IMG/VR virus record: IMGVR_UViG_3300045971_000437
Location: 6,515-70,514 of that record
Strand: one strand, 5' to 3'
DNA from: a virus
Length of the DNA: 64,000 nt
Below, piece after piece: positions 6,641-54,709 of this stretch. Every line of letters begins with the position of its first letter. The first letter of the stretch is position 1. Made by a program: the position numbers and the translations under genes. The notes beneath the pieces were generated by a model. It did not search any database. It was not told where the DNA came from and worked only from the letters and a program-made list of their open reading frames with translations.

Positions 6641-6682
6641 AATATCCCCATAATTTGTTATTTGATTATGGGGATATTTATA
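6641..6682 (-). promoter_or_regulatory. Late promoter TATAAATA inside a 14-bp hairpin that occludes the endolysin RBS
   Basis: Minus strand TATAAATATCCCCATAAT-CAAATAACAA-ATTATGGGGATATT-ATG. Confidence 0.75.
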
Positions 6683-11693: not shown

Positions 11694-11915
11694 ATAAAAT
11701 TCTCCAAAATGTAAAAATAAATTTAAAATAATTAAAAAGTACGTTTTAATGCGTACATTTTATTTATAGAATACCAACCAAAGTGTTGATCTGTTTAGGA
11801 TCAACTTTAATTTCATCGGAGAAACTTAGTCTGAATAACTAAGTAAGGTCATCATCGTAAATGGCATTGCACCATTTGTTAAAACATTATACCCTGCTTT
11901 CGCAGGGATATAAAC
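11694..11915 (-). promoter_or_regulatory. Structured leader of gp32 with sigma70-like and late promoters
   Basis: GTTTATA-17nt-TATAAT (11915..11886) with a GAAA hairpin in the spacer, three further hairpins, TATAAATA at 11768..11761 and a U-rich tract before GGAGA. Confidence 0.55.
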
Positions 11916-24485: not shown

Positions 24486-24545
24486 GTTATTTTCTCTTAA
24501 TAAGGTGGTTGTAGCAAGCTACTTTATTTATAGGTCAGGCAGATG

Positions 24546-47293: not shown

Positions 47294-47414
47294 TTTACTG
47301 CTCTTCGGGTTGATGATAGTGGATGTGTGTAACGTTTTTATTATAAATCTATTTATACATCTATCTCCGGAGCAAAAATAAACCTGCAAAAAGAGCAGGC
47401 TTATCAGTGTTTAT

Positions 47415-48414: not shown

Positions 48415-48472
48415 TTTAATTTCCTAACCAGGGATTAATTGATAGATCTATTTATACATCCAACTCCGGAGC

Positions 48473-48503
48473 CAAAATAAACCTGCCGAAGCAGGTTTAT
48501 TTT
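48473..48503 (-). terminator. Terminator after the major capsid gene
   Basis: aaaataaacctgc-cgaa-gcaggtttatttt (UUCG loop on the minus strand). Confidence 0.85.
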
Positions 48504-48516
48504 GGAGCTTTTTCGA

Positions 48517-49755
48517 TTAAACGAAAGAAAGATTTGCTACACTTATGCGACCATAATAGTCAGCTGAATTGCCAAGAGATGTTGCGCTAGAGGTAAATGT
48601 TGCTTTACCGTAACGAGTCATCAATGAAACGTGAGGGTTGAACGTATTAGGATCAACAACAACACCAGAAGACATCAATGGTACGTATGGGCAGTAGAAG
48701 TAACCTGAATCCATTTCACCAGAACCACCTTTGTAACCAATCAAGATTGGCTCAGTACCTGCATCGTGGTAGATGTATGTGTAAACTTTGATAGAACCGT
48801 TTAAAGTACCAACAAGTTTAGTGTTGTTTGGACCATCGAAGGAACCAGCAACAGCAGGAGCAAATACTGATTTAGATGCTGACTGCAATACTGATACAAC
48901 TAATGGAGAAACTACGATCCAGTTAGCTGGGCCACGGCGTGTTTTACGTGCGATTTCGTTAGAAATCTTGTTGATAAGAACACCAAGAACTGCATGACGA
49001 TCACCAACATAGTTAGGAACACCAGTGAAGGTACCTGCCATGTCGAAAGAATCAGTAGTACCTGCAAGTGCGATCAAATCATTGATGATTTCATTGTCGA
49101 TTTCAGAAACGATTGCTGAAGATAATGAAGAAGTGATTTCAGCTTCAAGGTCAAGACCATGAGATGCTTTCAAATCTTGCATTGCTTCTGGAGTCCAACG
49201 AGCTTGTAGCTTACGTGAACCAGCAGTAACAGTTTGTTTCAATACTTCAAGTGTTAATGAACGACCACCGAATGCTTCATAGTCAGATGTTGATGCAGCC
49301 ACACCTGTTGAAGTACCTGCAGCTGGACCACCGGAAGGAGCTGGTGCATCAGATGTAGAATAGAAACGTTTAGTCTTCGAATTGTTACCGAAGATTTCAT
49401 CGCCTGTATTGATGTCATCTGCTAAGCCGCCATTTAAAGTACCTGGAAGTGCAGTTGTAACAACGTTATCAGCGAATAAGAAACGCATAGAATACACAAG
49501 ACCTACTGGACCAGACATTGGCTGAACACCTACCAATTCTGTTGCAATAGTTCCAGGGATAATACGTCGAATCATTGGGATTACGATTTTCTGGAAGTTG
49601 CCGATAGCACCTGCAGCATTAGTACCTGCTCCAGCTGTTTCTTTCAAGTGTTGCATTTGGTTTTCTAGTACTGGACCGAGAATACGCTTCTTGTTTTCAG
49701 GCAAACCCTCAAGAAGTGTATCTTTGGTTTCTTGCCAATTTTCAAATAGTTCCAT
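48517..49755 (-). CDS. 23: Major capsid protein (gp23-like)
   Basis: LVGVQPMSGPVG, RKLQARWT.E..QDL...HGLD.E, EIDNEII, YCPYVPL, F.P.V..MTRYG. Confidence 0.95.
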   Translation of the reverse strand: MELFENWQETKDTLLEGLPENKKRILGPVLENQMQHLKETAGAGTNAAGAIGNFQKIVIPMIRRIIPGTIATELVGVQPMSGPVGLVYSMRFLFADNVVTTALPGTLNGGLADDINTGDEIFGNNSKTKRFYSTSDAPAPSGGPAAGTSTGVAASTSDYEAFGGRSLTLEVLKQTVTAGSRKLQARWTPEAMQDLKASHGLDLEAEITSSLSSAIVSEIDNEIINDLIALAGTTDSFDMAGTFTGVPNYVGDRHAVLGVLINKISNEIARKTRRGPANWIVVSPLVVSVLQSASKSVFAPAVAGSFDGPNNTKLVGTLNGSIKVYTYIYHDAGTEPILIGYKGGSGEMDSGYFYCPYVPLMSSGVVVDPNTFNPHVSLMTRYGKATFTSSATSLGNSADYYGRISVANLSFV

Positions 49756-49774: not shown

Positions 49775-50656
49775 TTAGTTAGTCATACCAGCAAGTTTTC
49801 TCAAATGAGCAAACTTATCTGATACAGGTGAAGGTTGAACCAATGTTGGTGCATCCCCTGTTAAAACAACCGACTCAGTTAACTGGGCTGGCTTTTCTAC
49901 TGCGATAGCAGCTGGTGCTGAAGCATCTTCTTTCAAAATACGATCGATGAACTGAGCATATGCTTCTTCAAGACGTGCAGTTTTAACTGATTGAAGAACG
50001 AACAACATCTGTTCTTTCTTTTTGCCAGTCAATGGTGCAAGCATTTTTTCTAGTTTAGCTTCACGAACTAAAGTAGCTTGAGATTCCTCTAAAGTACCGA
50101 TAGTCTGTTCTGCATCTTCTAGTTTAGCAATTGCTACAGCCAATTTAGCCTGTACTGAATCTTCATCAGTATGGGACTTATTAAATTCTGTTGCATATGC
50201 TTCGAATATTTTGCGGCCAAACTCATTTTGTTTGACAATTTCTAGGTCTTCGCGAAGTTCTTCGAACTCTTCATTAAGACGTAGCTCAAAGAAAGCGTCC
50301 ATCTTATCGACAAGTTTGTCTAGTTCTTCTGAAAGCGTTGCTGCGATTGAGTGTTTTTCTTCAACGATCTTTTCTGCATATTCTGCTTCGAGGTCGCGGA
50401 AACGTTCAATATCATTTTTAAGTTCTTGAATTTCTTCATCGAGCTTTTTAGATACAAACGATTCAACATTTTCAATCAAAGAATCACGTTCGCTGGTCCA
50501 CTGTTCGGCAATTTCAGCTCGTACTGTCATAGACACTTCTTCGCGAACAATAGTTTTATATTGTTCAACAGAAGCTGTCCACTCGGTAGAAATTGAAGCT
50601 TTTGCTTCTTCACTTAGTAGATCAGAGTTTAGCAATTTCTGAAGGATTTCATCCAT
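49775..50656 (-). CDS. 22: Prohead core scaffold protein (gp22-like)
   Basis: Acidic coiled-coil, FGRKIFEAY, directly upstream of the MCP gene. Confidence 0.85.
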   Translation of the reverse strand: MDEILQKLLNSDLLSEEAKASISTEWTASVEQYKTIVREEVSMTVRAEIAEQWTSERDSLIENVESFVSKKLDEEIQELKNDIERFRDLEAEYAEKIVEEKHSIAATLSEELDKLVDKMDAFFELRLNEEFEELREDLEIVKQNEFGRKIFEAYATEFNKSHTDEDSVQAKLAVAIAKLEDAEQTIGTLEESQATLVREAKLEKMLAPLTGKKKEQMLFVLQSVKTARLEEAYAQFIDRILKEDASAPAAIAVEKPAQLTESVVLTGDAPTLVQPSPVSDKFAHLRKLAGMTN

Positions 50657-50684
50657 GCGTTTCTCCTTTGTTTTAATTGGGAAA

Positions 50685-50716
50685 TTAGAGACTTGAAATA
50701 GCCGCCTCTAACGGCT
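50685..50716 (-). ncRNA. Cis-regulatory RNA motif, copy A (pseudoknot/alternative hairpin)
   Basis: AGCCG-UUAGAG-G-CGGCU-AUUUCAA-GU-CUCUAA; ends 28 nt before the gp22 ATG. Confidence 0.6.
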
Positions 50717-50813
50717 TGAATTTTAACGCATTTGACAAAATAAACTGTACAAACTCGCATTAACCGTACGAATTTATTTATAAGGAAGCGCAAAAATTCA
50801 TTAAAAACTTTAC

Positions 50814-50984
50814 TTATTCGTCATCAGAAGTAATTTCATCATCAGCGGGCGCCTCTTGTGGAGCCAGACCTGCAACATCTTTCATTTTAGCTGAAAGATA
50901 TCCATGCAAATCCATAGATGCTTCTTCCGGTTTATCATTAATAAGATTATTTAGCATATTCTTAAGAGCTTCTCGTTTATCCAT
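50814..50984 (-). CDS. Small acidic prohead core protein, 56 aa (not in ORF track)
   Basis: MDKREALKNMLNNLINDKPEEASMDLHGYLSAKMKDVAGLAPQEAPADDEITSDDE; GAAGGAG RBS; position similar to T4 gp67/68. Confidence 0.75.
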   Translation of the reverse strand: MDKREALKNMLNNLINDKPEEASMDLHGYLSAKMKDVAGLAPQEAPADDEITSDDE

Positions 50985-51012
50985 TATATGTATCTCCTTC
51001 GATTTAAAAAAT

Positions 51013-51040
51013 TTGAGAGACTACCGGCCTCTCAACGGTA
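51013..51040 (-). ncRNA. Cis-regulatory RNA motif, copy B
   Basis: UACCG-UUGAGAG-GC-CGGUA-GU-CUCUCAA; ends 28 nt before the ATG at 50984, just after the late motif GTAAATA. Confidence 0.6.
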
Positions 51041-51050
51041 TATTTACTTA

Positions 51051-51383
51051 TTATTCTTCCTGCTCTTCTGATTCTATTGATGCTTTACCATCTTCAAAAC
51101 CTGCTTCATAAACTTTATTGATAAGATCGGCCAATTCATCACCAGTCTTTCCTTCAACTTTAGCAGCAATTTTTGTTACTATAGATGGAAGTTCTTCCTC
51201 TTCGCCTTCTACTTTTTCTTCATCTGGAGTTTCAGATTCTTCATCATCTTCTTTAACTAATTCTGGAAGACCAGCTAGTTTTCTAAATAAATCCATATCT
51301 TCATTTAATTTAACTGAAGTCTTTTTTACTTTAGCTTTTGTTTCTGATAGTCCAGCTAATTGTCGCAAACGTTGATTATCCAT
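51051..51383 (-). CDS. Acidic prohead core protein
   Basis: Two RQLAGL-type motifs; EGKTGDEL domain shared with the neighbouring gene. Confidence 0.65.
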   Translation of the reverse strand: MDNQRLRQLAGLSETKAKVKKTSVKLNEDMDLFRKLAGLPELVKEDDEESETPDEEKVEGEEEELPSIVTKIAAKVEGKTGDELADLINKVYEAGFEDGKASIESEEQEE

Positions 51384-51838
51384 TATGCTTCTTCCTCTTC
51401 ATTAGGTTGTTCTTCCATAGATGCAGCACCATCTTTAACCGCTTCATCATAAAGATGTTGTATAATTGCAACTAGCTCATCGCCGGTTTTACCTTCTGCA
51501 TCTGCAGCAGCCTTCATAACTGCTTCTGGGAATGCAGGTTTTTCTTCCTCAGCATTATCAGTTGGATCTTCATCCTTCTCATCTACAATTTCTGGTTCCG
51601 GTGTTGCAGGAATTTCTGTTGCTGGTCCAGATGGAGTAACGACTGGCTGGTCTGGCGTCATTGCTGGTGGTCCGCCTGCAGTCGTAGAAGGAATTGCTGG
51701 AAGACCAGCAATTCGTCTAAATTCATCACCCATTGAAACAGTCACTGGACCTGTAGCATGACCAGCTAATGGAGTTAATGCATAATTTTCTCTAACTGTT
51801 GGTAGACCAGCAAGTTGGCGTATTCTATTTTTATTCAT
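51383..51838 (-). CDS. Acidic prohead core protein (paralog of 51051..51383)
   Basis: Two RQLAGL-type motifs; EGKTGDEL domain. Confidence 0.65.
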   Translation of the reverse strand: MNKNRIRQLAGLPTVRENYALTPLAGHATGPVTVSMGDEFRRIAGLPAIPSTTAGGPPAMTPDQPVVTPSGPATEIPATPEPEIVDEKDEDPTDNAEEEKPAFPEAVMKAAADAEGKTGDELVAIIQHLYDEAVKDGAASMEEQPNEEEEA

Positions 51839-52426: not shown

Positions 52427-53041
52427 TTATTTTCCAGTTAATGACTTGATAAATTTCTTAACTTCAGCTTCAAAGTATTTTTGAGCTTTAGGATCATGAA
52501 CTACAGCTTCAGCAAGAGTAATAATCTTTGTGTGCTCAAGTGATTCACGAACAACATCTGGATAGCAACCTGGACCTGACGGTTGAGCAACGATATCTAA
52601 AGTAACGAATGCAAAGTCTTCAACTACACCCTCAGAAGTAACGTTACCAGTACCTCGTGAAGATACACCAAGCTTTACACCACCATTAATTAACTGTTGT
52701 ACAATATTTCCAGAAGGTGTATTTAAAATTTTACATTTACCTACCGCATTGTCACCATCCATCCAAGCTTCAGTAATAATGTGAGATACATTTTTAAGAT
52801 CGATTGAAAGATTGTCTGGGTGATTTAATTCACCTAAGATGTATTGCTGTTCTTTAGCTTTTTCAGAAATAAATGCTACTGCACGTTCAATTTCTGATTT
52901 TGGGTAAATTCGCTGATTAAGATTCTTCTGCTCTGCAGTCATAATTCTACCAGCAAGATACAAATTCTTTTCTGCGTCTCGTGATTCCATTAAAGCTGCT
53001 TCTGCTGGATTAAATCTTTCGATTAGTAACTGTTTTTGCAT
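52427..53041 (-). CDS. 21: Prohead protease (gp21-like)
   Basis: NLNQRIYP, LGELNHP, VSHII, GVSSRGTG, D.VAQPS. Confidence 0.95.
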   Translation of the reverse strand: MQKQLLIERFNPAEAALMESRDAEKNLYLAGRIMTAEQKNLNQRIYPKSEIERAVAFISEKAKEQQYILGELNHPDNLSIDLKNVSHIITEAWMDGDNAVGKCKILNTPSGNIVQQLINGGVKLGVSSRGTGNVTSEGVVEDFAFVTLDIVAQPSGPGCYPDVVRESLEHTKIITLAEAVVHDPKAQKYFEAEVKKFIKSLTGK

Positions 53042-53078: not shown

Positions 53079-53118
53079 GCAAGGGGCAACTATAAACTTA
53101 TTTATAGTTGCCCCTTGC
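53079..53118. repeat. Perfect 18-bp inverted repeat with a 4-nt loop between portal and protease
   Basis: gcaaggggcaactataaa-ctta-tttatagttgccccttgc. Confidence 0.9.
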
Positions 53119-53128
53119 ATTAACTGAC

Positions 53129-54709
53129 TTATTGAGTAGACAGATCAGGTTCCTCTTCTTTAGGAGGTTCTTCATCCGGTACTGGCTCTTCAGGAATTTC
53201 AACTTCTACTTCTTTCCTATTATCGTAAACTGCTGGATCGTAAATCTGTTGAAGTTGATCAACTGCTAATTGATCTTCAATATGTCGCTCTTGTTTAAGG
53301 AGAGCTTCATTCATTTGAATATCATCTTCAGTTAAACCTAAATAACGCTTCATAATGAATCTACGTGATAAGTATTTCACGCCTTCAACAGCATTAAATG
53401 TGTTGATAAGATCGGCATCTAAAGCTGCTTGTTTATAAATTGCAAAATTTTGAGGCTCTGGTAATTTCAATTTAAAAATTTCAGTATCAATATTGATACC
53501 GGTTACTTTTAAGTAGATTTTAAACTGCTCATCAAAAATATTTTCAACTGATGACTGTAAACGTTGAATATAATTCGCAAATCGTTGTTCTTCAACATAA
53601 GCAATACCAACCTTACCATCATTATAAACACCACCACCTGTCTCTTGACCTTTCATATATGAAGTAGGGACACGAAGAGCTCGGAATACCTTGTTCATAA
53701 AGTAATCTAATTCTGGAATTTCCCATGATGCTCCGCCTGGAAGTGTTTCAACTCTTGAACCTCGGCCGGCTGCAGTAGTTGGAAAGAAATAGTCTTCTTG
53801 AATTGATTCTGGATTATAAACTGAATCTGTTTGATTTGCGTTACCCGTATTAGGAGCTCGCTTCTGACGAATATCATTTTTAATCTGTTCGATATGCTGT
53901 TTAACTCGTTGAGGTGGCATATTACCAACGTCAATATAGAACACTCGTCGTTCTGGAGCTCTAACAATCCTATAAATGATTGCTGAATTTTCAAGCATTA
54001 CCAATTTTTGGTAATCGTTAAATGCTGACTGAAGAATAGATAATCCAAATGGTGCTGAGTCTCCCATTTCATTCGACAATGTAAAATGAATTATAGCATT
54101 AACAGGAGAAATTTCAACTGAATCATTTTTACCAGCATTAGAAGTTAATTGGCTGGCAAAACTTGAAGGGCGAATATGATATGCCACGGTCTCACCTTCT
54201 GCATTAACTTCTATTCCTATAACTCTAGTGGGATCAACGTACTCCCATTTTTTAGTATCAGATGTTTTTCTAAAAAAGCAATCACCGTATTTTACTAATG
54301 TTCTAGAAATATTAAACACTTTAGTATTGAGAGAATGGAACGTAGTCCAGTGTCTTAATGCTGAACGAATTGTTGTTGCTGTGGTATCTTCGATATCTTG
54401 ATTTTCTTCAGTTTGATAATCAATAATGAATGGTAAACCTGTTCGTTTATCAGCGGTTGAAATTTCCTCTGCAACAATATCTAGTGCTCTTGATATGTCA
54501 CCACTATCCATACCATCATATTGTTTATAGCGCTGAAGTCTTGCACCGGCACCCTTAAGTAGATTTGAAAACCATGATGTGGAAGAATATGCTGCATGTC
54601 CTGCAGCATTTAAATTTTGACCGTCATCTAGAGTAGCTGTTGGTTTGGCATATGAAGCTTTACGAGTAGCTGGAGTAACTATCCTCCAGTAATTGGTCCA
54701 ATGTGTCAT
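53129..54709 (-). CDS. 20: Portal protein (gp20-like)
   Basis: IYRIVRAPERRVFYIDVGNMP, EDYFFP...GRGSRVETLPGG, ALRVPTS. Confidence 0.95.
   Translation of the reverse strand: MTHWTNYWRIVTPATRKASYAKPTATLDDGQNLNAAGHAAYSSTSWFSNLLKGAGARLQRYKQYDGMDSGDISRALDIVAEEISTADKRTGLPFIIDYQTEENQDIEDTTATTIRSALRHWTTFHSLNTKVFNISRTLVKYGDCFFRKTSDTKKWEYVDPTRVIGIEVNAEGETVAYHIRPSSFASQLTSNAGKNDSVEISPVNAIIHFTLSNEMGDSAPFGLSILQSAFNDYQKLVMLENSAIIYRIVRAPERRVFYIDVGNMPPQRVKQHIEQIKNDIRQKRAPNTGNANQTDSVYNPESIQEDYFFPTTAAGRGSRVETLPGGASWEIPELDYFMNKVFRALRVPTSYMKGQETGGGVYNDGKVGIAYVEEQRFANYIQRLQSSVENIFDEQFKIYLKVTGINIDTEIFKLKLPEPQNFAIYKQAALDADLINTFNAVEGVKYLSRRFIMKRYLGLTEDDIQMNEALLKQERHIEDQLAVDQLQQIYDPAVYDNRKEVEVEIPEEPVPDEEPPKEEEPDLSTQ

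Follow-up and report, generated by a model that had tools for sequence, protein, structure and literature searches.

The 5' leader of gene 32 in phages T4 and T2 contains a small H-type pseudoknot that lies tens of nucleotides upstream of the start codon and is followed by an unstructured stretch with the ribosome-binding site. This unstructured tract is A/U-rich, and the leader serves as a translational operator that is bound cooperatively by the gene's own product. In the stabilizing 5' untranslated regions of the Escherichia coli ompA type, a very highly expressed message opens with a 5' hairpin, which is followed by a single-stranded block, another hairpin close to the ribosome-binding site and an accessible Shine-Dalgarno sequence.

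The element described here is found in two leaders of the head module of an uncultured T4-type jumbo phage, one in front of the scaffold gene (copy A) and one in front of a small acidic open reading frame, p56 (copy B). As in gene 32, a small H-type pseudoknot can be drawn in a T4-type phage 5' leader, and in copy A about 1 nt would cross a 7-bp stem and a longer loop the other stem, if 7 bp form. However, there is no sequence relation to the gene 32 element, the tract downstream is rich in C and A instead of A and U, the gene products are head proteins and not a single-strand DNA-binding protein, and stem 1 is dispensable in many relatives. A gene 32-type translational operator was rejected on the grounds of the C/A-rich tract and the head-protein genes. 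The ompA-type layout and the very high expression of the message are shared, but there is no homology, and the phage element has an extra helix between the hairpin loop and the flank. The resemblance to both systems is judged to be one of layout, not of family.

The window, a stretch of 64 kb, is part of a 71-kb IMG/VR viral contig that is estimated to represent about 22% of the genome. A nucleotide search against cultured phages gave no match for the window. By protein comparison, the nearest cultured relative is the Ralstonia jumbo phage RsoM2USA, whose scaffold protein is 46% identical, and Xanthomonas, Stenotrophomonas and 121Q-like jumbo phages come next. The head module is located on the minus strand and consists of the portal, a gp21-type protease, small acidic open reading frames, p56, the scaffold and the Gp23 capsid genes (Table 1). 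An IMG/VR scan with the scaffold protein yielded 69 related viral loci (49 to 79% identity), in which the gene order of the window is kept, and p56 is directly upstream of the scaffold gene in nearly all of them. In the initial annotation, p56 was called a core gene. It is conserved and located next to the scaffold gene, but it has no match to a Pfam or PHROG family, and this designation was not retained.

Several further observations were made in the head module. The 110-aa and 151-aa open reading frames (51051-51838) have a common N-terminal motif, R-x-L-A-G-L, which is repeated inside each protein, and each of them matches homologues of the other. They appear to be paralogous acidic proteins of the head interior, with repeats that may be a protease site. 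Directly after the capsid gene (48472-48505), a perfect palindromic hairpin of 15 bp with a T-run behind it is likely a strong terminator of the scaffold-capsid transcript; the late promoter at 48449-48456 follows next. Downstream of the capsid gene of a complete relative, a near-threshold tRNA match was detected (L047:6745-6817; 28.6 bits, threshold 29). In another locus, the capsid gene was matched in two pieces in different frames with a 4-nt overlap (L064:2056-3269), which points to a frameshift or an assembly error in that contig.

Table 1. Features of the two leader elements and of the surrounding head module (window positions, unless a locus is named). S1a and S1b, arms of stem 1; S2a and S2b, arms of stem 2.
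Feature	Positions	Strand	Remarks
Copy A, scaffold leader element	50684-50716	minus	sequence, predicted fold, homologues, R1 match
Copy A S1a	50716-50712	minus	AGCCG
Copy A S2a	50711-50704	minus	
Copy A S1b	50704-50700	minus	CGGCU, then 7-nt linker
Copy A S2b	50692-50685	minus	
Copy A-to-start spacer	50663-50683	minus	short C-rich, G-poor tract, A-rich stretch, Shine-Dalgarno
Scaffold Shine-Dalgarno	50663-50668	minus	AAGGAG, 6 nt from ATG
Scaffold leader, 5' part	50717-50772	minus	5'-proximal hairpin, then single-stranded block ending GUUCA before copy A
Copy B, p56 leader element	51013-51040	minus	sequence, predicted fold, orthologous elements in 14 relatives
Copy B S1a	51040-51036	minus	UACCG
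Copy B S2a	51035-51027	minus	
Copy B S1b	51026-51022	minus	CGGUA
Copy B S2b	51021-51013	minus	
U-run	51006-51011	minus	six U, one base (A) after copy B hairpin
p56 Shine-Dalgarno	50994-50999	minus	AAGGAG, 9 nt from ATG
TAAATA core	51041-51046	minus	directly 5' of copy B
Second p56-leader hairpin in relatives	L004:3590-3625		same place in L008, L012, L014, L045, L047, L048, L071
T4-type late promoter TATAAATA	50775-50782	minus	scaffold-capsid transcript
TATAAATA sites	6675-6682, 11761-11768, 24525-24532, 34132-34139, 47350-47357, 48449-48456, 50775-50782, 53099-53106	minus	
TATAAATA site	58066-58073	plus	
Portal gene	53129-54709	minus	
Peptidase_S77 (gp21-type) protease gene	52427-53041	minus	
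Three small acidic ORFs	between protease and p56	minus	193, 151 and 110 aa
p56, acidic ORF	50814-50984	minus	56 aa, ATG at 50984
Scaffold protein gene	49775-50656	minus	293 aa, ATG at 50656
Gp23-type capsid gene	48517-49755	minus	19 nt after scaffold gene

The sequences of both copies, the differences between them and the 28-nt gaps were present as previously described. Stem 1 changes from AG/CU in copy A to UA/UA in copy B, with both sides changed, and stem 2 gains one G-C pair in copy B. The common core of the two copies occurs only at these two sites within the 71-kb contig. A strict descriptor of stems 1 and 2 matched both copies and one ordinary terminator in the window, and neither this descriptor nor R1, a covariance model of the scaffold-family element, revealed further copies there. 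Copies A and B are interpreted as paralogous, clade-conserved RNA structures.

In both leaders, 28 nt separate S2b from the start codon (50684-50657 before the scaffold ATG and 51012-50985 before the p56 ATG). This exact spacing, which the initial annotation had treated as a property of the element, is true in the window but not in the relatives, where the stem ends 18 to 40 nt (median, 26) before the scaffold ATG and the p56-family element ends 34 to 45 nt before the p56 ATG. Because the distances from the Shine-Dalgarno sequence to the ATG differ, the two gaps are also not aligned with the ribosome-binding sites. That both gaps have the same length is best read as a coincidence.

Nearly every scaffold leader in the 69 related contigs has a stem-loop shortly before the Shine-Dalgarno sequence. 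Among 46 unique scaffold leaders, the best hairpin was more stable than 95% of dinucleotide shuffles in 32 and than 80% of them in 44, with a median energy of -8.2 kcal/mol versus -2.9 kcal/mol after shuffling. The sole helix recovered by RNAalifold from 24 full scaffold leaders was stem 2, with compensatory changes at six of its seven pairs. Its sequence is variable but the pairing is kept, indicating that stem 2 is a real RNA helix, and the G-U pairs indicate that the fold is specific to the sense strand. In several lineages, an unrelated stem sequence is found at the same position of the leader; this includes L003, although it is the fully supported sister of L004. Replacement by unrelated sequence at the same place argues for a structural rather than a sequence-specific role, and the position of stem 2, rather than its sequence, is what is conserved. 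The combination of a purine-rich 5' arm and a pyrimidine-rich 3' arm persists widely, even in RsoM2USA. A C-rich tract begins 0 to 2 nt past the stem in most of the closer relatives and is missing in the distant, G+C-richer relatives and in RsoM2USA.

In 14 relatives, the p56 leader opens with a copy B-like interleaved architecture, which starts at the stop codon of the preceding gene or immediately beyond it. The layout comprises a 4- to 5-nt S1a, a linker of 2 to 5 nt, a G-rich S2a followed at once by S1b, a linker of 1 to 5 nt, and S2b. Since the linkers vary, MAFFT failed to align these sequences in register, and they were parsed by script. Stem 1 pairs in all 15 p56-family sequences; ten have A-U as the outer pair, four have G-C and one has C-G, and no mismatched intermediates were found among them. 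On the best scaffold-protein tree, this corresponds to at least four switches, two of which separate sister taxa (L047/L048 and L032/L045). These repeated paired switches provide good evidence for pairing between the loop and the 5' flank, and the spacing between the stem 1 arms is nearly constant, at 8 to 10 nt.

Support for stem 1 is weaker in the scaffold family than in the p56 family. In scaffold leaders, stem 1 is confined to a crown clade, is missing in about half of the closer relatives, and was repeatedly lost on the best tree (seven to eight gains or losses, of which two to three are forced by strongly supported branches alone). The pseudoknot is therefore not essential in this family. 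In a scaffold sub-alignment, which is biased because its members were chosen for having stem 1, 85% of stem 1 cells pair and there are two compensatory pairs. The loops measure 9 to 13 nt where stem 1 is present and 3 to 6 nt where it is absent, the longer ones having the length needed by a loop crossing stem 1. Leaders that lost stem 1 still conserve its 5' flank, namely AGCC and the GUUCA block, and this retention of the 5' arm without its partner indicates some further constraint on it.

The minimum-energy fold predicted by ViennaRNA for both copies is a plain extended 9-bp hairpin (copy A, spanning 50684-50712, -10.0 kcal/mol, z = -2.5; copy B, -11.6 kcal/mol, z = -3.3), which is the alternative hairpin mentioned in the initial annotation. 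The pseudoknot was no better than the plain hairpins, at -6.6 to -9.8 kcal/mol versus -9.7 and -11.0 kcal/mol, by a rough estimate that sums the stacking energy of both stems and a pseudoknot penalty from the Dirks-Pierce model. The interleaved arm order S1a-S2a-S1b-S2b is found in both window copies, in 14 p56-family relatives and in about 14 scaffold-family relatives. The geometry of copy A fits a classical pseudoknot if stem 2 uses 7 of its 9 possible base pairs. In copy B and five relatives, merely 1 to 3 nt are available to cross stem 1 (1 to 2 nt in several p56-family members), which is tight, so that stem 1 may form transiently before the 3' arm of stem 2 or alongside a shortened stem 2. 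The proposal of an H-type pseudoknot is supported by the interleaved arms and the covariation of both stems; the rough energies do not favor it over the plain hairpin, and stem 1 is often missing in scaffold leaders. A pseudoknot is plausible but not required, and the pairing of the loop with the 5' flank would represent either a pseudoknot-capable fold or a transient first hairpin during transcription.

R1 matched copy A with 50.6 bits and found one copy per locus and exactly one in each complete genome of 343 to 368 kb. Copy B was not detected by R1 even at E = 10, indicating that the scaffold and p56 families cannot be merged in one model. A loose descriptor of stems 1 and 2 gave 27 matches in a complete 358-kb relative, versus about 34 expected by chance, and only the match in the p56 leader had p56-family flanks. 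Loose descriptors matched at chance rates and were very noisy on the loci, so a single pattern of this kind is not significant; it is the homologous leaders in the 69 related loci that make the element more than chance. A dispersed repeat was rejected, as there are only two copies in the contig, one R1 copy per complete genome and no enrichment of descriptor matches. In the 358-kb relative, a descriptor match at G001:C1:158031 (minus strand) is located about 35 nt before a Shine-Dalgarno sequence and ATG and could be a third instance or chance.

Rfam gave no meaningful match in the window region at E values up to 10 and nothing on the leaders in the loci of seven relatives at E values up to 1. 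The best overlapping scores were 16.8 bits for the S15 leader (threshold, 39.5) and 13 bits for TMV UPD-PK3 (threshold, 34). These results agree with the earlier suggestion that the element is unclassified, and the proposed covarying cis element in two head-gene leaders was borne out by homologous leaders that keep the pairing with compensatory changes. By these searches, it is a phage leader RNA motif without a known class that appears specific to the leaders of two adjacent head genes.

The nine TATAAATA sites in the window are all intergenic and all face the downstream gene. They are no more frequent than expected by chance, but they are positioned far from randomly, indicating that the phage uses T4-type late promoters. 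At the scaffold promoter, the relatives have the same TAAATA core with variable first two bases, and in all 24 close relatives that were examined, this core is 93 to 128 nt upstream of the scaffold ATG. The scaffold leader of the window is 118 nt long and has two hairpins; the other late leaders are 20 to 60 nt long and unstructured. Among relatives, the 5'-proximal hairpin varies in sequence, and the single-stranded block is the best-conserved sequence of the leader. In RsoM2USA, the scaffold leader follows a late promoter and contains a 5' hairpin and, immediately ahead of the ribosome-binding site, a similar purine/pyrimidine hairpin; stem 1 and the C-tract are absent.

Other pairings of the scaffold leader were also considered. 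A 7-nt perfect complement between the block upstream of copy A (50725-50731) and the sequence over the scaffold start codon (50655-50661, both minus strand) is specific to the window. Pairing of the GUUCA block with the spacer after the Shine-Dalgarno sequence was seen by eye in only about half of the relatives and was dropped. An anti-Shine-Dalgarno switch formed by the 3' arm of stem 2 or the C-tract was set aside, the pairing being weak and absent in distant relatives.

In the p56 leader, the TAAATA core next to copy B is a possible weak late promoter. With T4-type spacing, transcription from it would begin at 51035, the first hairpin base, giving a 5'-terminal stem-loop, which fits awkwardly with the U-run that follows. 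The G+C-richer relatives have a late-promoter core at the p56-leader position, often in the loop of an inverted repeat. In L034, L035, L038, L042 and L058, this TAAATA core is about 40 to 60 nt before the ATG; read-through RNA would fold there, and promoter-initiated RNA would be without the 5' arm. A second small hairpin with a conserved CUCAYAG-like loop and a covarying stem is present just before the p56 Shine-Dalgarno sequence in relatives and absent from the window.

A cis-acting leader structure for mRNA stability, processing or framing of the ribosome site is considered the most likely role of the element, at slightly short of an even chance. Its core would be the stem 2 stem-loop, about 10 to 15 nt upstream of the Shine-Dalgarno sequence. 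As a compact structural barrier, it would protect or delimit the message against host ribonucleases; it would also act as a processing boundary between cistrons and frame an unstructured ribosome landing region, and together these functions would help to determine how much product the most highly expressed head genes yield. The proposal of the initial annotation that protein binding, processing or stabilization of the 5' end controls the stoichiometry of core proteins is regarded as hypothetical. The comparison of leaders shows the predicted structure to be real, strand-specific, position-constrained and leader-specific, and we infer an effect on stability or translation. The region from the Shine-Dalgarno sequence to the AUG was predicted to be slightly more exposed in the native than in the upstream-shuffled sequence in 20 of 25 leaders, with a small gain (medians, 0.46 versus 0.42). 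The window's own leader showed the opposite, with a predicted exposure of 0.25 versus 0.40 after shuffling, lower than in 87% of the shuffles. Since copy A is located within the primary transcript rather than at its 5' end, protection of a 5' end would require a processing step. A generic barrier would also leave three features unexplained, namely the compensated stem 1, the conserved 5' flank and the C-rich tract past the stem.

The main rival is a translational operator, since a generic barrier does not readily account for stem 1, the constant distance between its arms or the conserved flanks. In this reading, which resembles the gene 32 leader pseudoknot of T4 or coat-protein operators, stems 1 and 2 of both leaders would be recognized by a phage protein, such as one involved in head assembly or a dedicated RNA binder, that would co-regulate the translation of p56 and scaffold-capsid. 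The two paralogous copies with the same unusual interleaved architecture, the compensatory changes that maintain stem 1, the widespread purine and pyrimidine arms of stem 2, the conserved flanking sequences and the restriction to two adjacent head genes are all consistent with such an operator. It is nevertheless rated as rather unlikely: in several lineages, stem and loop have been exchanged for entirely different sequences, about half of the scaffold leaders have no stem 1, the two families share no conserved loop or bulge residue, and no candidate RNA-binding protein was identified. Quite improbable is an intrinsic terminator or attenuator between cistrons that would halt some of the transcription arriving from the protease promoter and thereby lower downstream expression. 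Copy B does resemble a Rho-independent terminator, with a G+C-containing 9-bp stem, a 5-nt loop and an A followed by six U; it was picked up by a terminator scan and begins 10 nt beyond the stop codon of the upstream gene. However, copy A has no U-tract and was not flagged by the scan, and C-rich sequence instead of a U-tract follows all 14 orthologous p56-leader elements as well as the scaffold-leader hairpins of relatives. The U-run is thus a feature of this window only, and an attenuator would fit only the window's copy B.

RNase P is known to cut hairpins followed by CCC, for example the precursor of 4.5S RNA, as well as tRNA-like structures with a pseudoknot. The stem with CCC or CCA at 0 to 2 nt might mimic such an acceptor-type minihelix, or the conserved A/U-rich block before the element might be an RNase E site; after either cut, the scaffold-capsid message would begin with the hairpin. 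The C-rich tail close behind the stem in most closer relatives and the conserved single-stranded block just 5' of the element would suit a processing signal of this kind, but the tail's absence from the distant relatives and from RsoM2USA, and its irregular distance from the stem in the p56 family, leave little chance for it. A role at the DNA level, as operator-like palindromes for a DNA-binding protein, or no role at all, as neutral remnants of a duplicated leader, is very improbable. The stem 1 arms do form a near-palindrome with fixed spacing, and the G+C-richer relatives have a late promoter inside an inverted repeat at the same intergenic position. Yet the G-U pairs of both stems are A-C mismatches on the other strand, the stem 2 sequence was replaced with the pairing kept, and a binding protein would have had to change its specificity again and again to follow the symmetric, repeated switches of stem 1.

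How giant phages arrive at very different amounts of their scaffold, core and capsid proteins is poorly understood. The element is spread across a large clade of uncultured jumbo phages, with a recognizable counterpart in the cultured Ralstonia phage RsoM2USA; it offers a testable handle on post-transcriptional control of late genes, with RsoM2USA as the experimental entry point. If the element is only a stabilizing hairpin, it would be an ordinary though well-documented example. Recognition of the pseudoknot by a protein or a processing enzyme would make the element a novel means of regulating phage head assembly. It is distinctly unlikely, though conceivable, that stems 1 and 2 together are a dedicated operator for a head-module protein, or a tRNA-acceptor-like handle for RNase P, that couples p56, scaffold and capsid expression to head assembly. 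If true, this would constitute a post-transcriptional feedback loop that sets prohead stoichiometry in giant T4-type phages.
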